Below, in pieces: positions 25,973-40,538 of a stretch of 64,000 nucleotides of DNA. This stretch comes from Candidatus Poribacteria bacterium (GTDB lineage: Bacteria; Poribacteria; WGA-4E; WGA-3G), in contig VXMD01000035.1 in NCBI GenBank assembly GCA_009841255.1, positions 4,453-68,452 of the forward strand, in the 5' to 3' direction. A program made the position numbers and the translations under genes. A model generated the notes under the pieces. It did no database searches, was not told the origin of the DNA, and saw only the letters and a program-made list of their open reading frames with translations. Every line of letters begins with the position of its first letter. Position 1 is the first letter of the stretch.

Positions 25973-26308
25973 CTACTCATCAAGTCCTTCTTGTGTTGGT
26001 ATTTTCTGTTTGGCAGCAGTTTCAAACACTGACTGAAGATTCGCCAGAGATGTCGCGATTGATTCCAAAGCCTCTACTTCTCGGATCCGAAGTTCAGCCT
26101 CCTCCGAGGCAGATAACTCGACTTGGTTTGGTTCAGTCTCGTCTGACGTAACCTCGTTTGCCTTGGTCTCTCTTGGCGCAGGGGTGCTAACGGAAAGGTC
26201 ATTGACGTATCTGGAACGCAAATGTATTTTGAGCGTCTCCTGTAGTTCAATAATCTCTGGATCATTTAGGGCTTTCTCAACCACACTGAGTTCCTTCCTA
26301 CTTATCAC
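25973..26308 (-). CDS. Hypothetical acidic 111-aa protein
   Basis: This is an ORF with no recognisable motifs. It lies in the same orientation and operon context as the upstream NTPase gene. Confidence 0.35.
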   Translation of the reverse strand: MISRKELSVVEKALNDPEIIELQETLKIHLRSRYVNDLSVSTPAPRETKANEVTSDETEPNQVELSASEEAELRIREVEALESIATSLANLQSVFETAAKQKIPTQEGLDE

Positions 26309-26357
26309 CAGATTTGCTTGCGGTTTTGGACCATGGATAGGTATTACTGTTTAATTA

Positions 26358-27530
26358 TCATGTTTCTCGATCTAACTCATTTTTTTCTATTTTTATCACG
26401 TACGCTGGATCGATAATGCTCTTTCCCACTTCAAAGTGTTCATCACCAAGGGCTGTGTTAATAGCGTTACGGCATCTTTTATTGATGTTACGAGGGGTCT
26501 TTTTCTCTAAACCTTCCAGAAGCATTTGCAAGGCTGTTGGATCAAATGGATAAGTCAAAGGTAGCTGTTCTGGCAGAGATCCATCTCGGTACTGCGGGTG
26601 CTTGAGAAGCTCCTCTACATATTCGATTGCTTCATCCACTTCTAGTTCTGGAAAGTAGATGACATCAGTGACACGATCTAGTAAAGCACCACCTAAAATT
26701 GTCTCAAGATCCTCATACTCTTCAGGATCCGCAAGGGTCATATTAAGACAAAGGGTGAAATAGTTTGGCAGTCGATCGATCATGTCGCGGAGACCTTGTG
26801 ACACGATGCGAAACTGGGCTGAGGTCAAATAAATCAGATCCTCCATTTCATCAATCCAAAGACAAACGCGTGAAGGGTAAAAAGTTTCGCGATGTGAATC
26901 TAATCCAATTAAACATTGCAGAATACCTGCTAGCACGCGAAATCGATCTTGTGATTTGGTAATATTCCGTGCAATGCCAAGTTTTCTTAATTCAGCTCGA
27001 GTAACGCCTTCCAAAAAATAAGAGCGTAACAAAGCTTGGTTCTCATTGGCCTGCTCTGTTCCCAATAGCCAGAAGGCACGCGCAAGTTCTTCACTATCAA
27101 GAACCCTATGAAGTAAATCCAATGTTTCATCTTCTGATAAATTACCAATGGCATCTCTGATAATTCTGTGGACATGTCTCATTCCAAGCGTATCCAGAAT
27201 ATCAATGTAAAGATCTTCAGCAGGCTTTCCGAGTTCCTTTGGCACGCAAACATTGATTTGAAAAAAGCGATCTTTACCTGCAAGGGACTGAGGCAGATTT
27301 TCCTTATTTCTAAAGTAAAGTGAGGCGTGGGTTTTGCCACCACCCCAAGGACCTTGGTTAAGGATTACCTGAGTAGCAGAATCGGAGAGTGCGACTTCAA
27401 AGACCTCCTCAAATCGTTGTTTTACTTGCTTCATTCCTGCCCAAACAATTTGTTCCGCTTCGGTTGGTGGTGTCAAATCAAAAGGGTTTTTTTTCAAAAA
27501 TACAAGGTTCCAATCAAATTTGCCAATCAT
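26358..27530 (-). CDS. AAA+/ORC-Cdc6-like P-loop NTPase (defense-island component)
   Basis: The Walker A motif VILNQGPWGGGKTHA and the Walker B motif VCLWIDEMEDL are present. The protein is 390 aa. Confidence 0.6.
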   Translation of the reverse strand: MIGKFDWNLVFLKKNPFDLTPPTEAEQIVWAGMKQVKQRFEEVFEVALSDSATQVILNQGPWGGGKTHASLYFRNKENLPQSLAGKDRFFQINVCVPKELGKPAEDLYIDILDTLGMRHVHRIIRDAIGNLSEDETLDLLHRVLDSEELARAFWLLGTEQANENQALLRSYFLEGVTRAELRKLGIARNITKSQDRFRVLAGILQCLIGLDSHRETFYPSRVCLWIDEMEDLIYLTSAQFRIVSQGLRDMIDRLPNYFTLCLNMTLADPEEYEDLETILGGALLDRVTDVIYFPELEVDEAIEYVEELLKHPQYRDGSLPEQLPLTYPFDPTALQMLLEGLEKKTPRNINKRCRNAINTALGDEHFEVGKSIIDPAYVIKIEKNELDRET

Positions 27531-27532
27531 TA

Positions 27533-28207
27533 TTAACTCCTTATGTTCGCATAGGGTGGTAATTGGGAGAGAGTTTCATTAATTTTTTTTAATTTGCTAT
27601 TATAGCATCTTAATCTTTTTGCTGGAACGTCATTTTTGGTTTTACCACCTATACGCCCGTTGATGTCTTTTAAGGCAGCCTCAGCTATTTGAGAATGGAA
27701 TCGGTTCCTGTGTCTGGCAAAAAGATACAGCACAAAGTCAAGAGATGACCAAATTTCTCCAATCCGAAAATTGTTAAACACTCGAAACAAAGAACCATCT
27801 CGTTTTGGATCAGTCGTTTTCAGTTCATTAGTTAAAAAAATGACTTGACGATATCTACCGCTTAAAATTGCGTCTAGTGCAACACAGCAATTATGACATT
27901 CCCCTTGATTTTCGTTACCGTTCAACTTTATATCGAAATGCTGGACAAAAGCCTCCTCCAATTTTTTCAACTTGCTCTCTTGCCCTCTGAAACTCCACAC
28001 CGATTTTTTACATTTGTTTTCCATTCCAGTATCATTTAAATCAGGATGGTCGTGCAATTCGTTGCAGATCGCTTCGCTTAATTGAACATCAAATTCTTCC
28101 CATAGCCATAGCCATAGTTTCTTGTTTGCCACATCAATATCACGCATGTGAATCAATGAATTTGTGTCTGGAATGCACAATAAGCTTGACTTTTTTCTTC
28201 TACTCAT
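27533..28207 (-). CDS. PIN-like putative nuclease
   Basis: LLCIPDTNSLIHM (first-strand Asp), a later E, VALDAIL and IFLTNE match the PIN acidic-residue spacing. The assignment is by pattern only. Confidence 0.4.
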   Translation of the reverse strand: MSRRKKSSLLCIPDTNSLIHMRDIDVANKKLWLWLWEEFDVQLSEAICNELHDHPDLNDTGMENKCKKSVWSFRGQESKLKKLEEAFVQHFDIKLNGNENQGECHNCCVALDAILSGRYRQVIFLTNELKTTDPKRDGSLFRVFNNFRIGEIWSSLDFVLYLFARHRNRFHSQIAEAALKDINGRIGGKTKNDVPAKRLRCYNSKLKKINETLSQLPPYANIRS

Positions 28208-29420
28208 GTCTCCTCACAAAGTAGGATTCATTTTCCCGGGCTGACGTTCTGGCTTCATATCTGTAATTGTCTAATGTACGTGGTTTTTGGAACCATTGAA
28301 TAAGTTCTTGTATATTCGTCAAAAGACGCCATTCTGTCGCGAAACGTATACATAGATACATCGTCCCTTGTGTAAGAGAAATCTTTGGGATGCTAGTTTT
28401 GCGGAACTTATCAAACGCTTCGGGAAGATATTTTTCACAGGCTTTGTGTCGGACTTTGTCATTAACATCTTTCCACTGCCGTAGATCAGCATCACAAATC
28501 ATGAACGGGCTGACTTCTGAAAAAAACTGTGTGTTAAACCATGCCTCTGTGACGTCGGAGATATTAGGATTTTTCAATTTCGGGAAAGTTTTGGTCAAAT
28601 TCTGTCCAGCTTCCGTGAGTTGGTAAATGAAAGTATTTTTTTCTTTTGTTGCATCTAATAACCCAAGATCTAAGAGCCAGTGTAAACGGGAAGGGACTAT
28701 ATAAGCGGCATAACTCTCAGGCTTCCCCCATTCCCTCATAGCCCCAATTTGCCTGTCATGTAAGCGTCTTGTGATATGTTCCTGTGAACTTGTTAAAATT
28801 TTTGCTTCGAGACGCTCCAAAAAAAACTGCTCAAAATTCTTGTGTAGATTTTTGTTGTCGGGGTTTTCAAGCGATTGCACCATATTAATAACAGTTAGCA
28901 GAAAATCAGCGTCCTGTTGTAGAATTTGATAAATGTAAAAAATCCGTTCATCTTCACGAAGGCAGAATAAATTTGGATTTTCATTGGATTTATCATTGAC
29001 CAAACTCAAAAGAATTCTTCCAATTCTTGTTAATTGATAAACATTAGAAATTTGGGAGAGCAGCCCAAACTTAACCGCTAAATCAATATAGTTAATAGCT
29101 AATTGAATCATTCTTTTTTTTTGAATAGAGTGGGCAGCACCTGTTTGATATTTATAGTTTTCGAGATCATTTGTATGAGTATAACTCCAATTTCTTAACT
29201 TAATCGCTAAAACATCTTTACTTAATGGACGTGCTCTCACAAGCCCTAGTATTTGTGATAAATATCTAAGACGACGAACAAGCGAACTAGGGGCACTAAT
29301 GGCACGGTAAGAAATTTTCATAAATATTACTCCTACTTCTGTTCGGAAGTCATACCAAAGATTTTTTACAGTCTGTAACTCTAAATTCTGTACTACCGTT
29401 CTTTTGAATGTAGGACGCAT
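28200..29420 (-). CDS. Hypothetical 406-aa protein, the first gene of the operon divergent from dndC
   Basis: No DGQHR motif is present, so it is not a canonical DndB. It may be helix-rich or winged-helix. Confidence 0.45.
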   Translation of the reverse strand: MRPTFKRTVVQNLELQTVKNLWYDFRTEVGVIFMKISYRAISAPSSLVRRLRYLSQILGLVRARPLSKDVLAIKLRNWSYTHTNDLENYKYQTGAAHSIQKKRMIQLAINYIDLAVKFGLLSQISNVYQLTRIGRILLSLVNDKSNENPNLFCLREDERIFYIYQILQQDADFLLTVINMVQSLENPDNKNLHKNFEQFFLERLEAKILTSSQEHITRRLHDRQIGAMREWGKPESYAAYIVPSRLHWLLDLGLLDATKEKNTFIYQLTEAGQNLTKTFPKLKNPNISDVTEAWFNTQFFSEVSPFMICDADLRQWKDVNDKVRHKACEKYLPEAFDKFRKTSIPKISLTQGTMYLCIRFATEWRLLTNIQELIQWFQKPRTLDNYRYEARTSARENESYFVRRHE

Positions 29421-29556
29421 GAAATTCTGGAAGGTGAATGTCAGTCGGATTCAATATGGCAAGGAACGTTTGCTTCCGTTTAGCAGTCACTAATTGATAT
29501 TTTATCAGGAGTTGCGAATGGTCGCAAGCAAAAAACTGGAGTGTAGATGGAAAAAA

Positions 29557-29586
29557 GTGACATTTTAAACTGAATTATGCTATACT
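29557..29586 (+). promoter_or_regulatory. Candidate sigma70-type promoter for dndC
   Basis: GTGACA-18 nt-TATACT sits 57 nt upstream of the dndC ATG. Confidence 0.3.
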
Positions 29587-29642
29587 TTAGTAAGTGTGAT
29601 AGGTAATCAACCATTATTTTTCTTATGTTAAGGAATTAAATC

Positions 29643-31052
29643 ATGGCAGAAGCACCATACACCATCTTCGATTCGCGTACCCTTGACGATATCCATCGCG
29701 AAATTCAAGAGGTTTATCTTGAAAATGCTCGACCATGGGTTATCGGATATAGTGGTGGAAAAGATTCAACGACTGCTCTCCAGCTTGTTTGGAGTGCTAT
29801 CGCTGACCTGCCGCCTGAACAACGGAAATACCCAATCTATGTGATTTCGTCCGATACACTAGTTGAGACACCGGTAATCGTTAGCTATATTACTGGCACT
29901 TTAGACCGAATTAAGATGATCGCACGTCAACAGAATATGCCGTTTGAGACCTCACTTGTACACCCAAAAGTTGAGGACACCTTCTGGGCTTGTCTCATAG
30001 GCAAAGGGTACCCGGCACCGTATAGTCGTCTGCGCTGGTGCACGGATAAAATGAAAATTCGACCTGCTAACAGGTTTATCTTAGAAAAAGCTTCCGAATA
30101 TGGGGAGGTTATCCTTGTTCTTGGCGTGCGTAAAGGTGAAAGTGCTACACGTGATCAAGTAATGAACCTACATCAAACTAAAAATTCGTTACTTTTGCGG
30201 CATAGTTCACTTCCTAACGCGTTTGTCTACGCACCAATTGTCAATTTTAGTCTGAATGATGTTTGGATGTATTTATTAAGTAATCCTCCACCATGGGGAG
30301 GAGATCATAGGCAACTTGTTACGCTTTACCGGAACGCAAATGGACAGGGAGAATGCCCTCTTGTTGTCGACGAAACCACGCCATCATGCGGTAATAGTCG
30401 ATTTGGATGCTGGACTTGTACTGTTGTTTCTAAAGGTCACTCGATGGAGGGACTAATTGACAGTGGTCAAGATTGGATGTTACCATTACTTGAGTTTCGA
30501 GAGATTCTCATGGAAACTCAGGTACCTGAAAGGAAAGCGGATGTTCGAGAACATAGGAGGCGTAATGGGAAAGTTACAATAGACAAAAACAATGGAAAAT
30601 TGGTGCGTGGCCCTTATACCCTCGAATTCTGTAAAGAACTTTTAAGAAAACTTCTTGAGACTCAACAAAAGGTCCGTTTGATAGGACCTGATCCGAATAT
30701 CGAACTTATCACACATGCAGAACTTGAAGAAATTCGTAAAATTTGGCGAACTGAACGCCAAGATTGGGAGGATGCTGTTCCGCAGATTTACGCTGACGTT
30801 ATTGGTGAACATGAATGGATAGTTGATGATACGGTGGCCTTTTCGGCATCGGACAAGATGTTACTATCTGCAATTTGCGATGAAAAAAAGATACCTGTCA
30901 CTCTCGTGGCAAAATTGTTGGACACAGAACGGCAAATGGATGGTATGAGTCGGCGCGCGAGAATCCAATCTCAAATTGATGCAGTTTTCAGTGAAGATTG
31001 GGAATCAGAAGAAGAGGTTCTTACTGCCTTAAGTATTAGTAATCAACAATGA
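29643..31052 (+). CDS. dndC: DNA phosphorothioation sulfurtransferase DndC (PAPS-reductase-like PP-loop protein)
   Basis: The PP-loop motif GYSGGKDST and the Cys cluster CGNSRFGCWTC are present. The 469-aa gene is followed by overlapping dndD and dndE. Confidence 0.85.
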   Translation: MAEAPYTIFDSRTLDDIHREIQEVYLENARPWVIGYSGGKDSTTALQLVWSAIADLPPEQRKYPIYVISSDTLVETPVIVSYITGTLDRIKMIARQQNMPFETSLVHPKVEDTFWACLIGKGYPAPYSRLRWCTDKMKIRPANRFILEKASEYGEVILVLGVRKGESATRDQVMNLHQTKNSLLLRHSSLPNAFVYAPIVNFSLNDVWMYLLSNPPPWGGDHRQLVTLYRNANGQGECPLVVDETTPSCGNSRFGCWTCTVVSKGHSMEGLIDSGQDWMLPLLEFREILMETQVPERKADVREHRRRNGKVTIDKNNGKLVRGPYTLEFCKELLRKLLETQQKVRLIGPDPNIELITHAELEEIRKIWRTERQDWEDAVPQIYADVIGEHEWIVDDTVAFSASDKMLLSAICDEKKIPVTLVAKLLDTERQMDGMSRRARIQSQIDAVFSEDWESEEEVLTALSISNQQ

Positions 31053-33073
31053 TCCTTCACAAACTTACTCTCAACAATGTTGGTTTGTTCGGTAAATTAC
31101 AAACTGCTCGCCTTACACCGAAGAATGGCAAGCCTTTAATCCTGATTGGAGGGATGAACGGTACTGGAAAAACAACACTGTTGGAAGCCGTTCGCCTCTG
31201 TCTCTATGGTCGCCGGTCATTGGGATCTCGGGTTAGTCAGAATGAATACAACGAGTTCCTTTCTAAAATGATTCATAGGAGTCCTAATTTAGATCTGTCT
31301 CCAAAACAAGCATCTGTGTCGCTTGACTTTGAATATGCGCGTAGTAATGAAAAAATACTATTTCGTGTTGAGCGATCTTGGCAACGCTACGGCAGCGTCG
31401 GTAACATTAAGGAAAAACTAACAATATACGAAAATGATGAATTAAATACAGAGTTTGATGCGGGGCATTGGCAGGACTATCTTGATGAGCTGATACCAAT
31501 TGGTGTATCTCAATTTTTCTTTTTTGACGGTGAGGATATCCAGAAATTGACAGACGATTCCACTCACGATTTGTCCCTTGCTGAATCGATTAAGGCATTG
31601 CTTGGACTTAACTTAGTGGAGCGGTTGCAATCGGATCTGCATATCTATGCAAATCGTTTGGCAAAGCGCAGAAGTCCGGAACCTCTTCAGAAAGAATTTG
31701 AAACTGTAGAATCAGAAATCGAGACTCTTAGGTTGTCCCTCAAGAATGCAGATGAAACCTTAGAATCTATACAGACTGAAATTGAGAAATTAGAGTTGCA
31801 AATTGCGGAACAAGAATCCAAAATCGCCTCAGAAGGTGGGAATTATGGAAAAAAACGAGAAGGTTTGAAACTTCAACAGAAGCAACTCCATACTGAAACT
31901 GAAGAATTAGAAAATCAGATTCGTGACCTATGTGCGGAGTTGTTCCCGTTTGCGCTTGGCCCCGAACTACTCAAGCAGTTAAGAAAGCGGCTGCTTAGAG
32001 AAATTGAATTAAGCGAATGGGAGGCGCAAAATCGTGCCTTGAAAATTCAAAACATGAAACTCCTTGAAACACTTGATTCTGGAGCGTTTTGGGATGATGA
32101 CCTCTTATCAGAATCACAAATTGAAGTAGTTCGGTCCAAGATTGCCCCCCTTTTAAAGACGCAACTTAAACGTCCGGAAGAATTACAAACGTTCAAGAAA
32201 ATTCGGGACCGTTCTGCCTCAGAATATAACCAGTTATTAAAGTGGATTGATGCTTGTCTTAGTGATGTACCTCAAGAATTTCGGAAATTGAACGAAACTT
32301 TAAGAGAAACACACTTAAAACAGCAAAAAGTACAGCAGGCACTTCAAAGAGCACCAGACGAAGATGTACTAAAACCAATGCTTGAAAATCTATCGTCGTT
32401 AAATCAGATGCTTGGACAAGAATGTAAACAAGAAGAGGATACTAACAGATTGATACGTTCTCTGTCTCATCAGTTAGCAGAATCAGAACGTAAACTGGAA
32501 AAAATGTATAACACTCAGCAGCTAGGAACAGTAAACATCCAACGCCAACAACAAGTAAAGGATGTGCAATCAGTACTTTCTACGTATACAACCAAACTTA
32601 CACAAGCAAAAATTGAAACTCTGGGTAATGCTGTTGTCAAAGGCTTTAACCAACTCTCACACAAACCAGACCGAATTAAGCGAATTGAACTTAACCCACA
32701 GACTTTTGCTGTGACACTCTACGATACCTACAACCAACCTCTCTCAAAGGGAGAATTATCTGCCGGTGAAAAGCAAATATATACAACTGCCCTCTTATGG
32801 GGATTGGCAAAAACCTCTGGGAAGGCACTACCAATGATTCTTGATACTCCACTGGGACGTTTGGACGGTAGCCATCGTCGACTCCTTGCTGAACGTTATT
32901 TTCCGTATGCCAGTCATCAAGTGATTTTATTATCAACTGATACTGAAATTGAAAAATCCTTCTTTTCATTGTTGAAACCACATATTTCACACACACTCCA
33001 TTTAGTGTATCAGCAGTCTGAGGCTCGTACCACTATAGAAGATGGCTACTTTAGAGAATTATTATGCGATTAA
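31049..33073 (+). CDS. dndD: DNA phosphorothioation SMC-like ATPase DndD
   Basis: It has the Walker A motif IGGMNGTGKTTLL, a long coiled-coil middle and a C-terminal ABC signature and D-loop region (LSAGEKQ...MILDTPLGRLD). It is 674 aa and overlaps dndC by 4 nt. Confidence 0.85.
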   Translation: MILHKLTLNNVGLFGKLQTARLTPKNGKPLILIGGMNGTGKTTLLEAVRLCLYGRRSLGSRVSQNEYNEFLSKMIHRSPNLDLSPKQASVSLDFEYARSNEKILFRVERSWQRYGSVGNIKEKLTIYENDELNTEFDAGHWQDYLDELIPIGVSQFFFFDGEDIQKLTDDSTHDLSLAESIKALLGLNLVERLQSDLHIYANRLAKRRSPEPLQKEFETVESEIETLRLSLKNADETLESIQTEIEKLELQIAEQESKIASEGGNYGKKREGLKLQQKQLHTETEELENQIRDLCAELFPFALGPELLKQLRKRLLREIELSEWEAQNRALKIQNMKLLETLDSGAFWDDDLLSESQIEVVRSKIAPLLKTQLKRPEELQTFKKIRDRSASEYNQLLKWIDACLSDVPQEFRKLNETLRETHLKQQKVQQALQRAPDEDVLKPMLENLSSLNQMLGQECKQEEDTNRLIRSLSHQLAESERKLEKMYNTQQLGTVNIQRQQQVKDVQSVLSTYTTKLTQAKIETLGNAVVKGFNQLSHKPDRIKRIELNPQTFAVTLYDTYNQPLSKGELSAGEKQIYTTALLWGLAKTSGKALPMILDTPLGRLDGSHRRLLAERYFPYASHQVILLSTDTEIEKSFFSLLKPHISHTLHLVYQQSEARTTIEDGYFRELLCD

Positions 33074-33426
33074 ATCGAATTCAGATATCTGAGGATTCCC
33101 GCAATAAATTGAGCATTCTGAAAGGCCGGACAGGATTGCTACCAAATGTTCTTAGCAGAATCGGGCTGATGCTTTCTCTAACCGAAGCAAATGAACCAGT
33201 CCTTGATGTAGATACTACGGATGGATCTGAATTTAACCGTTTCACACTGATGGGGGAGTGGGACTCGCTGATTATAGCACTGTTGGAGGAAAGAGGTAGT
33301 GTTAATGGTATGATCAAAGATAACGATACTCTGGTCAAATACTTTCGGGCACATCTAAATCGCGGTGTTCTACTGTTGTACAGTCGAGTGAAAGGGATTG
33401 AGGATTTAGTGAATCTTTTGCCTTGA
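33064..33426 (+). CDS. dndE: DNA phosphorothioation protein DndE
   Basis: The 120-aa ORF overlaps the dndD stop. The size and position are canonical for dndE. Confidence 0.65.
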   Translation: MRLNRIQISEDSRNKLSILKGRTGLLPNVLSRIGLMLSLTEANEPVLDVDTTDGSEFNRFTLMGEWDSLIIALLEERGSVNGMIKDNDTLVKYFRAHLNRGVLLLYSRVKGIEDLVNLLP

Positions 33427-33438
33427 CATTCTATTCAA

Positions 33439-33909
33439 CTAAGATATTAAATCTTTGTATGGTTCCCAGTTTAACAATAGATCAACTAAATTTTCAACTC
33501 TATTACCAGGGGCCTCTTCAACCTGTTCTTTAATCACAATAATTCCGCTATTAGCATATCCTTCTGCAATTCTTTGTATTTCTTTTTCATTTGTTAATAC
33601 TTCTGGATTTCCTGTTTTAGCCAGTGCCAAAGCGCGGAGAAGGGCTAAATCGTCCTCTTTAAATACAGTTCTCGCGAAAATATTCCGACGGTTTGTCCCC
33701 AGAGGAACCCATTTTTCCTGAAGGAATCCAATAAACGCGGCCAACATAAATAGGTTTTTCATTCCCTTAAAAGGCGGGTACTTCTCTCCTTCTCGGGATT
33801 CTTTTAGGGTTACATAGAGTGGATGATAGGACTCATCAATATAGACATAGTCTAGGGCTTGTACTTGTTCTGTTGTATTTGTTTCAATGCTTTCAGCAGT
33901 CATTATCAA
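33439..33909 (-). CDS. Hypothetical 156-aa protein, the last gene of the nuclease-helicase/ATPase operon. It has weak DndE-like similarity.
   Basis: An ATGA overlap links it to the upstream ATPase gene. Short local resemblances to DndE in this window: EDDLALLRALALAKTG against EWDSLIIALLEERG, and NRVENLVDLLLN against GIEDLVNLL. Confidence 0.45.
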   Translation of the reverse strand: MIMTAESIETNTTEQVQALDYVYIDESYHPLYVTLKESREGEKYPPFKGMKNLFMLAAFIGFLQEKWVPLGTNRRNIFARTVFKEDDLALLRALALAKTGNPEVLTNEKEIQRIAEGYANSGIIVIKEQVEEAPGNRVENLVDLLLNWEPYKDLIS

Positions 33910-35849
33910 TTTCCATTCTTATGCAATTCGTTGATCGTGGTTATGCTTATCTCATCGTCGAAATGCAATTCGTATTCCGCGCCGATCCGTGGTTCAAGAT
34001 TCCTCCATGCTCGCTCATCAGGTCGTAGTTCCTGGTCTGTAACAAATAAAATCAATTGGCTAGCGATAGAAGGAATGGTTTCGGTAATGTTTTCTTTTGG
34101 TTTATCGGAGAGTTTCGTAAAAGGAGCATCCATTACAATAGGAAAACGCTCTGTCGGCATATTAGACAACTTTTCCTTAACTGCTACTTTTGCTAGAGCA
34201 GCAATGAAAGCAAGGCTCAAAACCTCACGTTCTCCAGCAGATATCTCTGGACTTACCTGTCCATCATAGCGATCAATTACCTGAAGTTCGTAATTTGAAC
34301 TAAGACGTACCTCACGAAATGTATTTTCCTTCCATATCAATTTCTTGAAAATATCGCTGACCTCAATTTCAAGGTCTTTTCGCATATCCTCTTCAAGCGG
34401 GGCATATAATTCTTCCATTGCTGCTGCTGATTCCATAGCAAGCCGTCGACAACACTTCAGACGTTCTGCTTGAACTTCTAAAGATTTTGCCCTATCAATT
34501 TTCTGATCTAATGATTCTATTTCTACTTTGATTTCTTTAAGTCTACCTTTGTCTTGGTTAATCTTCGCTTCTAAATCTCTGATGTCCCGTTCGTATTCTT
34601 CCTGAGTTTTTTTATGTCTCTGGAAGTCATCGTCATCGAAATTTTCAAGAATCTTCTTAATTTCGTCTAAACGTGCTTCATTTGCCTCAATGTCCTTCTC
34701 TAGGCGTTGTTCGTCACTTAGTGTGGATTTAACATCAACAGGGATATTTTCAACCTTAGCCTCCAACAAGCGATTCAAACTGTTTTCTGTTTCTCTTACA
34801 GTAATACCAAACTCGGGAGAAACATTTTGAGAAATCAAATTTTGAATATGTTCATATTCCGGGCTCTCAGGATGAATAGATCTTCCACAAAGACAACGCA
34901 TATGTTCAAGTAAATCGTTCAGAATTGCATCAGGAATTCCGATCGGGGCTTTATTGCTACGGAGAATTGCTAATGCTTTTTCTATAGCAGATTGTGCTAA
35001 AGGGATAAAACCGTCATTAGCGAGTTGCAGAATCTTTTCCTGATACTTATCTTTTTCATCACCAAGCCTTTTCAGATTTGCTTTGATCGCTTTTTGTTCT
35101 TCAAAAAGCCGGCGAGTTTCCGAAAATTGTACAAGCACCTTCTCTAGGTCTTGTTTATGCTTCTGTGCGATTTTAACCTTTTTTACTTTATCTTTGATTT
35201 CCTCTGAAATTTTGACCCAAAGTGCTTCCTTTTCCTCTTTTTCACTAATTAATGCCTTTAATTCGTCCGGCACGTATTTCTTAAATTCACGCTGATAATC
35301 TCGAGTTACCTTTTCTAAATGTGTTATACCACGTTCAAACAACTCTATCCTCAGCACATTATGCACAGCACTTTTGATTTCATCTTCATTTCCTGGTTTG
35401 GCAAAATTATCTATCTTTTCGCCATCAAAAAAGAAGTGAGCACTTACATCTTCAGGAATAATAGACTGGATTTTGTCTGATGCACCAGCATCTAAATCTG
35501 CGGGTTCATTCTCTTTTTCCAGCAAAAAAGTTGGTTTATTATTGCGAAGCCATTGGCATTTCCGTTCTACTCGGTATCTAACATCCTGATCAATAAAACC
35601 TATTTCTACTGAAGTATCAACATTTTTTGCTTGCGCCACAACACGTCTATTCACGAATTCGCGGGTGTTTCCTTTAAAAAATGAATCTCCATACAAACAC
35701 CAGTTAAGAGCAGTAAGCAAAGAAGTTTTTCCTGTGCCATTAACTCCTCTGATGACTGTCACATTGCGATATTTATCAGTAGCAAAATGAATAGTTTGCT
35801 CACCATAATATGGACAGAAATTTTTTAACTTAATATAGTTAAGTATCAT
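33906..35849 (-). CDS. DndD-like SMC/ABC-type ATPase (second paralog)
   Basis: It has the Walker A motif VIRGVNGTGKTSLL, a long coiled coil, and a C-terminal signature and D-loop region (ISAGEREVL...IVMDAPFTKLSD). The N-terminus MILNYIKLKNF parallels the DndD N-terminus MILHKLTLNNV. Confidence 0.75.
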   Translation of the reverse strand: MILNYIKLKNFCPYYGEQTIHFATDKYRNVTVIRGVNGTGKTSLLTALNWCLYGDSFFKGNTREFVNRRVVAQAKNVDTSVEIGFIDQDVRYRVERKCQWLRNNKPTFLLEKENEPADLDAGASDKIQSIIPEDVSAHFFFDGEKIDNFAKPGNEDEIKSAVHNVLRIELFERGITHLEKVTRDYQREFKKYVPDELKALISEKEEKEALWVKISEEIKDKVKKVKIAQKHKQDLEKVLVQFSETRRLFEEQKAIKANLKRLGDEKDKYQEKILQLANDGFIPLAQSAIEKALAILRSNKAPIGIPDAILNDLLEHMRCLCGRSIHPESPEYEHIQNLISQNVSPEFGITVRETENSLNRLLEAKVENIPVDVKSTLSDEQRLEKDIEANEARLDEIKKILENFDDDDFQRHKKTQEEYERDIRDLEAKINQDKGRLKEIKVEIESLDQKIDRAKSLEVQAERLKCCRRLAMESAAAMEELYAPLEEDMRKDLEIEVSDIFKKLIWKENTFREVRLSSNYELQVIDRYDGQVSPEISAGEREVLSLAFIAALAKVAVKEKLSNMPTERFPIVMDAPFTKLSDKPKENITETIPSIASQLILFVTDQELRPDERAWRNLEPRIGAEYELHFDDEISITTINELHKNGN

Positions 35850-36016
35850 TGGGAGTCAACTTCCTTTTCAATGATTTTCTGAATATCTTCAATAATACCG
35901 CGAGGATTTCGCATATGCAGTTTTTGACGTTCAGCTGTAAGGACTTTACGAATCACGTTTTCTATCTGATGAGTTAAGTCTGTCTTTGCTTTAGGTAATT
36001 GTTTTTTTTCTTTCAT
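35846..36016 (-). CDS. Small 56-aa protein, absent from the ORF track, translationally coupled on both sides
   Basis: The sequence is MKEKKQLPKAKTDLTHQIENVIRKVLTAERQKLHMRNPRGIIEDIQKIIEKEVDSQ. Its ATG overlaps the upstream TGA (TGATGA) and its TGA overlaps the downstream ATG (ATGA). Confidence 0.4.
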   Translation of the reverse strand: MKEKKQLPKAKTDLTHQIENVIRKVLTAERQKLHMRNPRGIIEDIQKIIEKEVDSQ

Positions 36017-38082
36017 CAAGCTTCCCCTAACGCTCCCAAAAGGTTGTAATACTTAGCAAGTTCCCATATTTTATCACGTGCCTCAAATTTATTTAAGGCC
36101 ATTCCAGCAAATTCGCTAAATCTCTTTAGTTCGCGTGCAACGATTTTGCGCTCGGTAGCAAATGTTGCAGTTGGATATTGCTGGTAATCCATAGGTGGTA
36201 CAGCGATTAGGTCATGGATCTCTGCGTGTTCTTTACCAAGAGACTGCCTGAGAATCCGTCCACGCCGCTGAATAAATTCCTTCGGATTACTACTGCTCGC
36301 AAGGATATAAGCGGTTCGAGTGCTTGGCACGTCAACGCCTTCGTCCAGACACCTCATTGCTACAAGAGCTTGAAGATGTCCAGATGCGAACATCTTTAAC
36401 AATTCTTGTCTTTTAGCAGCTGATTCCTCCGCAGTGAATTTCGCAATTCGTAATTTCAAATTGGTTAATAATTCAAGAACTGAATCTACTCGTCCAGGAG
36501 CACAGTAAAATAATGTATGATGGAGTGAATCGGTTTTGTCAAATAATAATTCTGCCAACTTTGCCAACTTGTTTTCTGCTCGGTTAAGCAGTGCCGCTCG
36601 TTTTATCAGCAATCGTTCAAGTGCTTCACTTGTCTCACCAGATTCTACCAGATGATAAAGTTTTGAAATCCTTTCTGTGAGACGTTCATACTCCTCAAAT
36701 TCGCTGTCAGTCAACTCAACGAGATATGGATGATAATAGTAAGAACAGAGATATCCCTGTTTAATTGCTTTGTCGAGAGAAAATTCGTAAATTGTATCTC
36801 CAAAATAACTCCTGAGGGCAGCCGTACCTGGTGTGTCAAACCAGCGGTTAGGTGTTGCTGACAAGCCGAGACGGTAATTAAAAACCTCAGTTAATCTCTT
36901 GCCGCTTTGTTCTGCTCCAAGGTGGTGGACTTCATCCGCTACTAAAATAGCATCGCGTTTCAATTTGGAAAGTAATTTCTGCATGGTGTCATTTATAAAA
37001 GTGGTCTGTGTCGTAATAGTACAGACAACATCGCGAACACCATAATTATATCGCACTAAGGCAGTATTAAGCCGATTCACCCAAGTGGCAGAGCTTTTGT
37101 ATGCCAGGATTGGTTCAAATCCAAACCTGACTGCCTCCTCGTACCACTGATCAACGAGGTGCTGATATGGACACGCGATAACTACAAATAAATTTCCTTT
37201 TTCCCCTTTTAGTTTGGAAAGGGCAGAAAGAGCCGTGATCGTTTTACCAGTACCCGTCGCCATTTCCCATAAACCACGACATCTGTTCTTAAACCAAGCA
37301 TCAATCGCTTCAGACTGATACCCTCTTAATACTATGTCTTTTGGTAAATAAGGGGCGGTTTTTTCAATTATTTCTGGTTCATCTGTTGTCTCTGCTTGTT
37401 CTGTTTCATAGACCGTCTGATGGATTAAAAGTTCTTCCGTAACAGCACTTAGGAAATTTACAACATCCAACTTATCCGTGTTATTATCCCACAATTTCTT
37501 AAAATTATCTACTTTTTGTTGGACGCGTTCTTGAGTGTCATCCCATGACCAATGAACATCAATGGATTCAAAATTGTTTAGCAAACCGCCGACAGTTTCA
37601 TTTGATGAACCTGAAAATGCTACGGCGTTGTTATCATCATCTAAAAAGACTCCTATCTTTTCGTGATAGACTGCATGCTGATAATTTGTGTTTGAATCAG
37701 AGGGGAATGCGATTTTAATCTCTAAATGACCATGGGCAATTAACCAAGTGAGTAGCATTAATCTATCATGGGAAACTTGCAGAAAATCGCAGTCAAGGGA
37801 GGAATCTAAATTTTGTTTTCTTGCTTTGTAGCCGTATTGAATCGCCTCAATGTCATCTGACATCAATTTAGGTCCAGTTACCAAACTCATTTGCCCACCA
37901 TGCCGAATAAAAGTGGACAATCCTTTCACGTTCAAAGCAAGACCATTGCTAGTGAAATAGGCAACTGCACGATAATACCGTATGGCGTTTCTCAGACATG
38001 GTGTATAAAAGTCTGTAACAAGATTGGATCCGTCGGAACGATATTCAGATTGTAGCGATAGTTCTCTGAGTGACATAGGCAA
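36016..38082 (-). CDS. PLD-family (HKD) nuclease domain fused to an SF2 DEAD/DEAH-type helicase
   Basis: The single HKD motif is YHEKIGVFLDDDNNAVAFSGSSNET (HxK...D...GSxN). The helicase motifs are I (ATGTGKT), II (DEVHH) and VI (QRRGRILR). The protein is 688 aa. Confidence 0.8.
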   Translation of the reverse strand: MPMSLRELSLQSEYRSDGSNLVTDFYTPCLRNAIRYYRAVAYFTSNGLALNVKGLSTFIRHGGQMSLVTGPKLMSDDIEAIQYGYKARKQNLDSSLDCDFLQVSHDRLMLLTWLIAHGHLEIKIAFPSDSNTNYQHAVYHEKIGVFLDDDNNAVAFSGSSNETVGGLLNNFESIDVHWSWDDTQERVQQKVDNFKKLWDNNTDKLDVVNFLSAVTEELLIHQTVYETEQAETTDEPEIIEKTAPYLPKDIVLRGYQSEAIDAWFKNRCRGLWEMATGTGKTITALSALSKLKGEKGNLFVVIACPYQHLVDQWYEEAVRFGFEPILAYKSSATWVNRLNTALVRYNYGVRDVVCTITTQTTFINDTMQKLLSKLKRDAILVADEVHHLGAEQSGKRLTEVFNYRLGLSATPNRWFDTPGTAALRSYFGDTIYEFSLDKAIKQGYLCSYYYHPYLVELTDSEFEEYERLTERISKLYHLVESGETSEALERLLIKRAALLNRAENKLAKLAELLFDKTDSLHHTLFYCAPGRVDSVLELLTNLKLRIAKFTAEESAAKRQELLKMFASGHLQALVAMRCLDEGVDVPSTRTAYILASSSNPKEFIQRRGRILRQSLGKEHAEIHDLIAVPPMDYQQYPTATFATERKIVARELKRFSEFAGMALNKFEARDKIWELAKYYNLLGALGEA

Positions 38083-38221
38083 TTTCTGTTAAGGTTAATT
38101 AATATCTAACACATTACATTGTAACATATTTTGAAAAAAAAGTCAAAAATTTTCCTGACTTCTTTTTTGTAGAGGGTGTGTAAATATTTTGGCAGCGTCC
38201 TTGAGATGTCCCCTAAAACGT

Positions 38222-38252
38222 AGCACTCCGCTGGAGTGCGGTGTTTTTGGCA
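38222..38252 (+). terminator. Intrinsic-terminator-like hairpin with a U tract in an otherwise gene-free stretch
   Basis: GCACTCC-GCTG-GAGTGC is followed by GGTGTTTTTGG. No plus-strand gene lies upstream, so it could terminate an unannotated short transcript. Confidence 0.3.
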
Positions 38253-38529
38253 TGCCGACGTCTATAGACATATCACGCCTCTGGTGTGAGGAAACCCCTG
38301 ACCCGTTAAGAGGGGTTCCGCTTTATGACTATAGAAACTTGACATCCGTTAATGGAAGTAGTATAATTTATTATAAGAAACGGAGGACACACCAATCTAC
38401 AAAAAAAACGGTATATCACTCGTTTACAAAATGTTACACTTTCCAGCAAATTATTTTTTTGGAAAAAATGATCGGAGAAAAAAATGCCTACGAACCCTTA
38501 CGACCACTATGTTTGTTGCCGATGCGTTT

Positions 38530-38553
38530 TGTACACCAAATGTTACACTGGTG
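38530..38553. promoter_or_regulatory. Perfect 24-bp palindrome (candidate operator) with an extra half-site about 105 bp upstream
   Basis: AAATGTTACAC-TG-GTGTAACATTT is a perfect palindrome. The half-site AAAATGTTACAC recurs at 38423-38434. Both sit in the 812-bp AT-rich gap between the divergent helicase gene and the secreted-protein genes. Confidence 0.4.
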
Positions 38554-38894
38554 TAACATTTTAAGGGATTTTTAATAACAGTAAGTTTAGAATAACTTTC
38601 TAATACGTTAAAAATAGGGTGTCTTTTGCCGGGGAACGTCTCATTGCTCCCGATTTTTGTTTGACAAATTTCTGAAAAAAGTGTAAAATGAATAGTGTGT
38701 GAGTTCGATGAAGCATTTCATCTGATACCTAAACGCGAAAGGTGCCATTAACACCCTCGCTCTTAAACTCACTATCGTAATATATTCTCTAAGAAATGAA
38801 AATTGTGGACTTTGTTTGCAATATCTATGTTTCACAGGTGAGGTTTGGCACTGCAAGCCTCTTAAACTATGATCTAATAGGAGGATCTTTTTAA

Positions 38895-39728
38895 ATGAGA
38901 TTTTTTATGATTGTTGCTGGCGTACTCTGCGCCGCGACTCTTGCTCTCTGGACACCCACAGCTGATGCTGTTCCAAAAGTCGATATTTTTGTCTATACGG
39001 AAATAACGCAGTGGATTGGCCAGGGACAGGCACAAGAACAAGCCGATATATTCATAAAAGAAATGAAGGGCCAAAGAGGTATCGGTGAGATTGTCAATGA
39101 AGACGCCAAAGCTATTGAAAAGTGGACGAAGGATCACACCGAGGAAAAAGGCTATCACCTGATTAGCCTCTACGGTGATTTTCCACCTGAAATTTATCCA
39201 CAAGGCAATAAAGATGAAGATGGTTCCGTTGCTGAGGAATTCCTTGATGCCGGTAATACCTTCTCAAACAGTGCCGACTATTTCTTCTGGGGCTTAGCTG
39301 GAAGAAACCGTGAAGGTGGACTCCAAAACATGATGGATATCCCCGGTATCGTCCAATGGGATGATGACACAGCAATGAAAGTCACAAAGGAAGGGAAAAA
39401 ACTTACACCGACGCTGAAAGATTATGCCACCGATCGTCCGTTTCACGTGGATCAGCTTGCAAAAACAGATTGGGAAGTGGAAATCGCATTCGCTACGGAA
39501 ACAGGGAAATCGACGGGTATGAACCGGTGTGACCCGTGCATCATCCGGAATACGGAAACAGACGCACGTCTCATTCAGGTCTATCAGACGAATGGCCAAG
39601 ACGATCCGAAAGGTAAAGTCCTCTCGGAAATTCTCCTTAACTATTATCTTGAAACGATTGGGGCACTCGATGTAGATCCCCAAGAGAAACTCTCCACAAC
39701 GTGGGGCGATCTTAAATCCAGGAGGTAA
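38895..39728 (+). CDS. Secreted protein of unknown family with the C-terminal KLSTTWGDLK tail (paralog 1)
   Basis: It has a signal peptide (MRFFMIVAGVLCAATLALWTPTADA) and a strong ribosome-binding site (AGGAGG). Its conserved core YGDFPPEIYP...FWGLAGRNREGGLQNMMDI is shared with the next gene. It ends QEKLSTTWGDLKSRR. Confidence 0.6.
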   Translation: MRFFMIVAGVLCAATLALWTPTADAVPKVDIFVYTEITQWIGQGQAQEQADIFIKEMKGQRGIGEIVNEDAKAIEKWTKDHTEEKGYHLISLYGDFPPEIYPQGNKDEDGSVAEEFLDAGNTFSNSADYFFWGLAGRNREGGLQNMMDIPGIVQWDDDTAMKVTKEGKKLTPTLKDYATDRPFHVDQLAKTDWEVEIAFATETGKSTGMNRCDPCIIRNTETDARLIQVYQTNGQDDPKGKVLSEILLNYYLETIGALDVDPQEKLSTTWGDLKSRR

Positions 39729-39734
39729 AATTTA

Positions 39735-40538
39735 ATGCGAAATATTTTTCTTTCACTCACCCTGATTGCGTTACTGGCACTCCCTTTAACGCCTGTCCTT
39801 GCCGCCGGTGAAGTTGCTATCTATACCGGAATCACGCAATGGATTGGTAAGGCGCCAGCTGATGAACAGGCAGAAATTTGTGTCGGTCTGCTCGAAGATG
39901 CGAATATTGCTGTCACATGGTATGATAGCGATGGCCAAGCCGGAGACTTAGCCGATTGGATGGAAAGTGTCACCGGCGACGATGGCTTGGATATCTGTGT
40001 CCTTTACGGTGATTTCCCACCCGAAATCTATCCCGAAGGCAATGCGCAGACCGATGGCTCCATCGCTGAGACTTTCATCGAAACCACCGATGGGGACACT
40101 TTCATCAACCACGCCGATTACATGTTCTGGGGTTTGGCTGGTAGAAATAGAGAAGGTGGACTACAGAACATGATGGACATCGACGGTATTGTGATGTGGG
40201 ACGATGATACGCCTATGGTCGTCACGTCTGAAGGCAGTGCCATTTCTCCAAGTTTAACCGACTATGCATCCGACCGTCCATTCCACACCGATCAACTCGA
40301 CGGCGATTGGGAAATTGAAGTTTCACTCGCACAAAACGACGACGGCACCCGTGCCGATCCGATTATTGTTCGCGATGGGAACCTCGGTAGGCTGATTCCA
40401 ATGATACAGACCAATGGTGGAGATGAACCCAAAGGTGCTATCGCCGCTGAAGTTATCATTTGGCTGATGTCCACAACACCCGTTGAACCTGCTGGTAAAC
40501 TCTCCACGACGTGGGGGGATCTGAAAGCAGTTCGATAG
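39735..40538 (+). CDS. Secreted protein of unknown family with the C-terminal KLSTTWGDLK tail (paralog 2)
   Basis: It has a signal peptide (ALPLTPVLAAGE), the same conserved core, and ends AGKLSTTWGDLKAVR. Confidence 0.6.
   Translation: MRNIFLSLTLIALLALPLTPVLAAGEVAIYTGITQWIGKAPADEQAEICVGLLEDANIAVTWYDSDGQAGDLADWMESVTGDDGLDICVLYGDFPPEIYPEGNAQTDGSIAETFIETTDGDTFINHADYMFWGLAGRNREGGLQNMMDIDGIVMWDDDTPMVVTSEGSAISPSLTDYASDRPFHTDQLDGDWEIEVSLAQNDDGTRADPIIVRDGNLGRLIPMIQTNGGDEPKGAIAAEVIIWLMSTTPVEPAGKLSTTWGDLKAVR

Follow-up and report, generated by a model that had tools for sequence, protein, structure and literature searches.

The question raised by the locus described here is whether a four-gene operon lying next to the phosphorothioate (PT) modification genes dndCDE represents a new PT-linked restriction module or a system already known. 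The operon is located in a 64,000-nucleotide (nt) stretch of Candidatus Poribacteria DNA (GenBank assembly GCA_009841255.1, contig VXMD01000035.1, positions 4,453–68,452), which we refer to throughout as the window. A preliminary description had taken it for a candidate new module, with gene content and sizes unlike those of PbeABCD. Our comparisons contradict that claim and make it highly probable that the operon is a bacterial member of PbeABCD, also described as a CxC-ABC-ATPase/DndE-anchored system with an HKD–superfamily 2 (SF2) helicase effector, adjoining dndCDE on an island of low guanine-plus-cytosine (GC) content. This reading follows from full-length matches of PbeA and PbeC to existing models, from the assignment of PbeD to Pfam family PF27807 and from agreement with the published gene order, sizes and motifs.

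PbeA matches the PADLOC PbeA model PDLC02707 with E = 1.1e-244, residues 4–671 aligning to model positions 1–671 of 672. It scores 561 bits against NCBIfam TIGR04095 (dnd_restrict_1, ‘DNA phosphorothioation system restriction enzyme’), for which the cut-off is 600, and its Pfam matches are ResIII, Helicase_C and a weak PLDc_2. The preliminary description had read the 688-residue form as a single-HKD PLD nuclease fused to an SF2 helicase, and this architecture is borne out: an N-terminal PLD-type domain carries one intact HKD motif (H138, K140 and D146, then GSSN) and is followed by an XPB/Rad25-like helicase in which motifs I, II, III and VI are intact (Walker A GTGKT, DEVH, SATP and QRRGRILR). 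XPB/RAD25 are the closest solved helicases (E = 5e-28).

PbeC matches the PADLOC PbeC model PDLC02741 over its full length (E = 1.9e-116). Its description as a DndD paralogue is upheld by 30% identity to the heads of the window DndD, by a TIGR03185 (DndD) score of 221 bits, below the cut-off of 245.85, and by the Walker A sequence GVNGTGKT; Walker A, signature and Walker B are all intact. The CLC motif that would form the zinc hook of this CxC-clade protein is assumed to sit at the coiled coil's apex, judging from its mid-protein position. A 32-nt inverted repeat between dndD and pbeC (72% complementary) falls at the FFFDGE segment conserved in both proteins; it was rejected as a structural element and reflects DndD/PbeC paralogy.

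The DndE-like character suspected for the fourth protein is likewise supported. PbeD is recorded as PF27807 (DNA_S_mod_dnd_assoc_4) on the source contig, as are all 26 of 26 homologues, and it scores 46 bits against TIGR04062 (‘DNA phosphorothioation-associated protein 4’; cut-off 74.25). DndE is the top structural match to its predicted model among 48,164 chains. Pairwise BLASTP between PbeD and the window DndE returned nothing (E 7), and a search of PDB sequences with a PbeD profile was negative. A clade-2 DndE cognate with two ribbon-helix-helix units, a feature of membership in the system, is found directly after pbeC.

PbeB, a lysine-rich protein of 56 residues, found no match in any library scanned, NCBIfam, Pfam and PADLOC among them. 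Related loci and annotated plasmids of cyanobacteria and haloarchaea have a small open reading frame (ORF) in the corresponding place, and PbeB aligns with those of the Poribacteria loci and of two annotated plasmids through a common motif, R-x-V-L-x-x-E. RefSeq plasmids of Pseudanabaena and Haloprofundus have the same order of PbeA, small ORF, AAA ATPase and a protein of ~152 residues. On the Pseudanabaena plasmid these are annotated as ‘DNA phosphorothioation system restriction enzyme’, hypothetical protein, AAA ATPase and ‘DNA phosphorothioation-associated protein 4’. The small plasmid proteins align with window PbeB (RxVLxxE) and PbeD (IAExYANxG).

The published account closest to this arrangement is that of Xiong et al. 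2019 for Haloterrigena jeotgali A29, where the locus reads dndCDEA–pbeABCD and the four-gene cassette includes a PbeB of 66 and a PbeD of 152 residues (PMC6459918). That system gave ~10^4-fold PT-dependent protection against virus SNJ1, from which PT-modified virus escaped; all four pbe genes were needed, deletion of any one abolishing defence, and viral replication was blocked with DNA cleavage undetected (PMC6459918). Our operon resembles it in the A-B-C-D order, in the PLD/HKD plus helicase PbeA and AAA_23-type ABC ATPase PbeC, in the sizes of PbeB (66 versus 56 residues here) and PbeD (~152–154 residues), and in adjoining dndCDE. It differs in its bacterial host, in having no dndA in the locus, in converging with dndE at a distance of 12 nt and in the presence of an additional three-gene cassette divergent from dndC; the archaeal copy has been assayed, whereas the window copy is known from sequence alone.

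A second account, by Rakesh, Aravind and Krishnan 2024, describes PbeA as the fusion of an HKD endoDNase with an SF2 helicase, PbeB as a small protein that evolves rapidly, PbeC as a zinc-hook ABC ATPase of the CxC type and PbeD as a DndE cognate (PMC10853773), and every feature in this list was found in the window operon. The CxC ABC-ATPase/clade-2 DndE systems (Krishnan et al. 2020; PMC10853773) are PbeABCD under another name. They share the zinc-hook ATPase, the DndE cognate with long loops and a long C-terminal helix, the HKD endoDNase–SF2 helicase fusion and the small fast-evolving protein, but many carry a cytosine methylase instead of or beside Dnd genes, and none is present at the window locus.

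Other systems fit less well. The four genes were rejected as DndFGH, SspE or SspFGH, for which no model matched and the sizes are wrong. DndFGH and SspFGH hold an equivalent place next to PT modification genes and a presumed role in restricting unmarked DNA, but they have no homology to the four pbe proteins, and models for DndF, DndG or DndH are absent from the PADLOC and NCBIfam matches listed for these proteins, the longest of which has 688 residues. The genes for SspF, SspG and SspH measure ~1.8, 1.5 and 5.4 kb (SspH with an FtsK-like C-terminus), unlike any pbe gene, and DndH is a large protein with an FtsK/HerA ATPase, of a size not encountered in the pbe operon. The R subunits of Type I/III restriction systems and the HKD-helicase effectors of BREX-related type-2 systems also couple an SF2 translocase to a nuclease; their partners are methyltransferase/specificity subunits or BrxC/PglZ, in contrast to the ABC ATPase and DndE-like protein found here.

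Several observations weigh against the PbeABCD assignment or against its link to PT: (i) PbeB and PbeD matched no PADLOC model; (ii) the three NCBIfam scores fall just under their curated cut-offs (561/600, 221/245.85 and 46/74.25); (iii) no cysteine desulfurase, dndA-type or other, and no dndB was found in the 64 kb; (iv) among 553 PbeAC pairs across prokaryotes, dndCD is no farther than 10 kb away in only 42%, leaving 58% without it (PMC6459918); (v) Rakesh et al. argue that the system may act alone or with methylases and dispute its PT dependence (PMC10853773) and (vi) the pbe module of a haloarchaeal plasmid (L115) is paired with a methyltransferase. Points (i) and (ii) are those that would favour the proposal of the preliminary description, an undescribed PT-linked restriction module distinct from DndFGH, SspE/SspFGH and PbeABCD. 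We regard this as exceedingly improbable given that the PbeA and PbeC models are matched over their full length, PF27807 is recorded on PbeD, gene order, sizes and motifs are those of published PbeABCD, and PbeB and PbeD align with their equivalents beside annotated PbeA homologues on plasmids. Clear homology to PbeABCD, which that description had itself named as evidence against its proposal, emerged from Pfam, PADLOC and NCBIfam searches with hidden Markov models (HMMs). The operon is already known as a system and is one more instance of PbeABCD, labelled automatically by existing HMM libraries; as a further copy, in sponge-symbiont Poribacteria, it changes little by itself. The functional guess of a PT-linked defence module was right, by family membership.

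The four genes form consecutive, tightly packed minus-strand ORFs in the order A-B-C-D (Table 1), and their tail-to-tail arrangement with dndCDE was confirmed, only 12 nt separating the end of dndE from the pbeD stop codon. All four had been thought to be joined by ATGA or TGATGA overlaps, and this is correct in part. The pbeA/pbeB junction is TGATG, with one base common to stop and start, and the pbeB/pbeC junction is a 4-nt ATGA overlap. The pbeC/pbeD junction is TGAtaATG, a 2-nt gap, when pbeD starts at the ATG chosen by gene callers, which fits the N-terminal length of the closest homologue; an overlap (TTGA) arises only with the TTG start. A single promoter-like site precedes pbeA, and the 70–83 nt upstream of the gene that include it are 79–84% identical in 10 related Poribacteria loci. 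With genes that overlap or nearly abut, one conserved promoter-like site and dndCDE adjoining, the four-gene unit is predicted to be co-transcribed.

Does the pbe operon work with the neighbouring dnd genes? PbeA homologues occur in 16 Candidatus Poribacteria genomes (66–88% identity in a genome scan), and an identical PbeA sequence is present on an 82-kb sponge-metagenome scaffold, Candidatus Poribacteria being a sponge symbiont. Wherever the flank suffices, in 15 of 15 Poribacteria loci, pbeA is followed by pbeC and pbeD and then by dndE-dndD in convergent orientation, dndC being present as well where the sequence extends far enough. The expected co-occurrence with dnd is therefore kept in this lineage, but across prokaryotes it extends only to the 42% of pairs noted above. 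Occurrence without dnd in most genomes, the other outcome that the preliminary description had named as speaking against its proposal, is in that wider set partly borne out.

Comparison of 16 related Poribacteria loci (among L002–L023) with window positions 29643–38076 separates them into two classes, identity to the window as single reference being the measure. PbeC is 75–85% identical to its window counterpart in class 1 and 43–49% in class 2, and PbeD 71–85% and 42–55%. The modification proteins shift in parallel, from 90–93% to 72–75% for DndC and from 77–90% to 59–67% for DndD. PbeA remains at 80–86% in 11 of the 16 loci, which belong to both classes, and stands at 66–77% in five class-2 loci. 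This pattern suggests that exchange affects pbeBCD and dndCDE as a single block, or specificity cassette, and that PbeA is a largely constant, interchangeable effector. Such co-variation would be expected if PbeC and PbeD read the same motif or mark that DndD and DndE write, and it is in line with the co-evolution reported for ABC-ATPase/DndE pairs (PMC10853773); as a correlation in which 16 related loci are compared with a single reference, it is short of proof. The natural series of islands makes the question of which Pbe subunits read the PT motif directly testable by chimeras.

These data bear on the possibility that the module, while belonging to the PbeABCD family, works without PT as a stand-alone CxC-ABC/HKD-helicase system that only shares an island with dndCDE, for example as a suicide effector released once a phage removes PbeB. 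Points (iv)–(vi) above speak for this view, as does the occurrence of CxC systems without Dnd or with methylases (PMC10853773), and the island is a mosaic, the genes that separate pbeD from dndE differing among relatives. We nevertheless consider it unlikely, though deserving of attention, since archaeal protection needed PT modification and PT-modified virus escaped (PMC6459918), pbe is convergent with dnd in every Poribacteria locus with enough flank, and the pbeBCD class shifts with that of dndCDE as matched specificities would.

A PT-dependent mechanism for PbeABCD can be outlined as follows. DndCDE, together with a cysteine desulfurase encoded outside the window, would place PT marks on host DNA, as their family membership implies. 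PbeC, as a Rad50/DndD-like ABC ATPase, would dimerize via its CxC zinc hook and, with the putative double ribbon-helix-helix DNA binder PbeD, would scan DNA for the cognate motif or mark; the change of class of PbeC and PbeD along with DndCDE, PbeA staying constant, supports this role. PbeA would then be the effector, an SF2 translocase that stops unmodified invading DNA from replicating, probably through nicks or cleavage. Cleavage is suggested by the intact HKD motif and was not seen in the archaeal system of H. jeotgali; with one HKD half-site, PbeA must pair with a second copy to complete an active site. PbeB may be a small helical adaptor or brake, essential if the archaeal system is a guide. 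Replication inhibition, the requirement for four genes and PT dependence were all shown in the Haloterrigena system (PMC6459918).

The paralogy of PbeC and PbeD to DndD and DndE also allows them to be viewed as a second scanning pair of modification type, directing DNA modification in place of restriction, and cytosine methylases sometimes accompany CxC-DndE pairs (PMC10853773). This seems very unlikely to us: the operon contains no modification enzyme, the sole catalytic partner, an HKD nuclease-helicase, has its motifs intact, and any pbe deletion abolished archaeal defence (PMC6459918).

Of more interest than the pbe operon itself are the pattern of constant PbeA with swapped PbeBCD-DndCDE and a second group of genes, a three-gene cassette on the same low-GC island that is divergent from dndC and separate from Pbe. 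For convenience its genes are called casA, casB and casC here, provisional names that have nothing to do with CRISPR. None of the three products has a significant match in Pfam, NCBIfam or PADLOC. CasA is predicted to be a tandem winged-helix DNA binder that resembles BrxA and the FokI recognition domain at the level of fold, an architecture that the literature also assigns to SspB, and at E <= 1e-3 its family has 498 representatives in a set of 1.84 billion proteins. A comparison of 21 diverse CasB sequences shows D14, E50 and G102-E103 to be invariant and D127 nearly so (the window has E), and PIN families are the only recurrent weak Pfam matches, in 6 of these 21 members. Rakesh et al. mention PIN nucleases as a general occurrence at the margins of Dnd neighbourhoods (PMC10853773). 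CasC is read as an ORC/TniB-like AAA+ ATPase; some members of the family give weak AAA_22 and TniB matches. Profiles of CasB and CasC found nothing significant among PDB sequences. An acidic ORF of 111 residues lies directly downstream of casC; no library gave a match for it, and the related loci examined do not contain it.

Class-1 Poribacteria islands carry the cassette with its gene order unchanged and likewise divergent from dndC, and class 2 is without it. More distant homologues (30–45% identity) adjoin ssp genes. Two loci (L027 and L029) have them divergent from sspB(DUF4007)-sspC-sspD and one (L031) directly downstream of sspD; in Pseudanabaena they are flanked by an SspFGH-sized trio on one side and a cysteine desulfurase on the other. 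A metagenome scan with an alignment of the CasC ATPase returned 80 loci. Where flanks allow, the cassette runs co-directionally inside ssp operons of other phyla with gaps of a few bases, in the orders sspD-casA-casB-casC-sspB-sspC-cysteine desulfurase (an ending in -sspC-sspA was also noted) or sspB-sspC-sspD-casA-casB-casC. PT genes adjoin it in 10 of the 11 metagenome loci that extend 3 kb or more beyond it in both directions and in 33 of the 51 that extend 2 kb or more in one.

Two identities for the cassette were considered. It is not SspFGH, as its genes of 1.1, 0.7 and 1.2 kb differ from the sizes given above, and one locus (L025) has a typical SspFGH-sized trio (MAD7, FtsK) beside the cassette as separate genes. 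For diverged paralogues of SspB and SspC there was no support at the level of profiles, where hhalign gave non-significant probabilities of 2.8% for CasA against DUF4007 (SspB) and 4% for CasC against the SspC ATPase; at the level of fold, CasA has the architecture noted above for SspB.

Full-text literature searches found no published description of the cassette. We tentatively propose that it is a third, undescribed PT-linked module, a sensor/effector or targeting unit common to Dnd and Ssp; taken jointly with the reading of PbeA as a constant effector, we give this slightly less than an even chance. It may act as a restriction or sensing module or as an accessory to modification. Approximately 84% of sspBCD clusters are without a known restriction partner (PMC8092258), and its recurrence inside ssp operons and next to dndC makes the cassette a concrete candidate for one such partner.

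Table 1. Features of the window and of related loci (aa, amino acids; positions refer to the window except where a locus is named)
Feature	Position	Strand	Description
casC	26358-27530	-	390 aa; ORC/TniB-like AAA+ ATPase, Walker A GPWGGGKTH
casB	27533-28207	-	224 aa; PIN-like, conserved D-E-E-D/E tetrad
casA	28200-29321	-	373 aa; predicted tandem winged-helix DNA binder, BrxA/FokI-recognition type
casABC cassette	26358..29321	-	divergent from dndC
Acidic ORF	25973-26308	-	111 aa
dndC	29643-31052	+	TIGR03183 554 bits, above cut-off; PADLOC DndC
dndD	31049-33073	+	TIGR03185 515 bits, above cut-off; PADLOC DndD
dndE	33064-33426	+	TIGR03184 76 bits, above cut-off; PADLOC DndE
pbeD	33439..33903	-	154 aa from ATG, 156 aa from upstream TTG; DndE-like, clade 2
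pbeC	33906..35849	-	647 aa; CxC-clade ABC ATPase, DndD/Rad50-like paralogue
PbeC Walker A	35724-35747	-	GVNGTGKT (motif scan)
PbeC zinc-hook motif (CxC)	34887-34895	-	CLC, residues 319-321 of 647 (motif scan)
PbeC signature	34230-34241	-	SAGE (motif scan)
PbeC Walker B/D-loop	34122-34139	-	IVMDAP (motif scan)
pbeB	35846..36016	-	56 aa; lysine-rich small protein
pbeA	36016..38076 or ..38082	-	686 aa (ATG) or 688 aa (alternative TTG); HKD nuclease + SF2 helicase
PbeA sole HKD motif	37636..37665	-	HEKIGVFLDD (motif scan)
PbeA GSSN after HKD	37600-37611	-	motif scan
Promoter-like site of pbe operon	38118..38146	-	TTGACT-17 nt-TACAAT, TG upstream (consensus scan)
Inverted repeat, dndD/pbeC	31517-31548 / 35404-35435		32 nt
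Perfect sigma-70 consensus	38339-38367	+	TTGACA-17 nt-TATAAT; pbeA-upstream intergenic region
Three copies of AAATGTTACAC	38429-38561		pbeA-upstream intergenic region
Palindrome AAATGTTACACTGGTGTAACATTT	38538-38561		two of the AAATGTTACAC copies
Tandem paralogues	38895-39728, 39735-40538	+	277 and 267 aa
Low-GC island	~26000-40000		GC 0.375-0.42
pbeD-dndE insert, class 2, L006	10643-12418
pbeD-dndE insert, class 2, L012	14928-17701
pbeD-dndE insert, class 2, L014	14787-16570
pbeD-dndE insert, class 2, L018	14722-16461
pbeD-dndE insert, class 2, L020	14882-15700

The island stands out from flanks with a GC content of ~0.50 and occupies the same chromosomal site in several related Poribacteria genomes, bordered by two tandem secreted-protein paralogues and an FGE-sulfatase gene on one side and by GFO_IDH_MocA genes on the other. 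No mobile-element boundaries were recognized, the window having no tRNA genes, integrase or flanking repeats, and Rfam gave no match in 25–41 kb. The space between pbeD and dndE, so short in the window, is filled by variable genes in class-2 relatives: GmrSD; a GHKL-type ATPase with a 372-residue partner; an HTH_3 protein; a DndB-like protein of 428 residues with one of 166 residues; and unidentified proteins of 579–588 residues. GmrSD was rejected as the common insert of the relatives, occurring only in L006/L007.

Upstream of pbeA is an intergenic region of 812 nt that includes a perfect sigma-70 consensus on the opposite strand. Exact copies of AAATGTTACAC number three in the window, all of them in this region; two make the palindrome AAATGTTACACTGGTGTAACATTT, and these intergenic motifs are kept in three related loci (L002, L003 and L017). 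The region has no convincing ORF, no covarying pairs by RNAalifold and no Rfam match. A small ORF was rejected: the versions in the window (41 residues) and in L003 (56 residues) share only ~10 residues and then diverge, so that what is conserved is probably the nucleotide sequence. The motifs may represent an operator or a small transcript.

The tandem paralogues at the island border have signal-peptide-like N-termini and belong to no Pfam family; their DNA repeats are 72–90% identical, and the pair is kept beside the FGE-sulfatase gene in many Poribacteria genomes.

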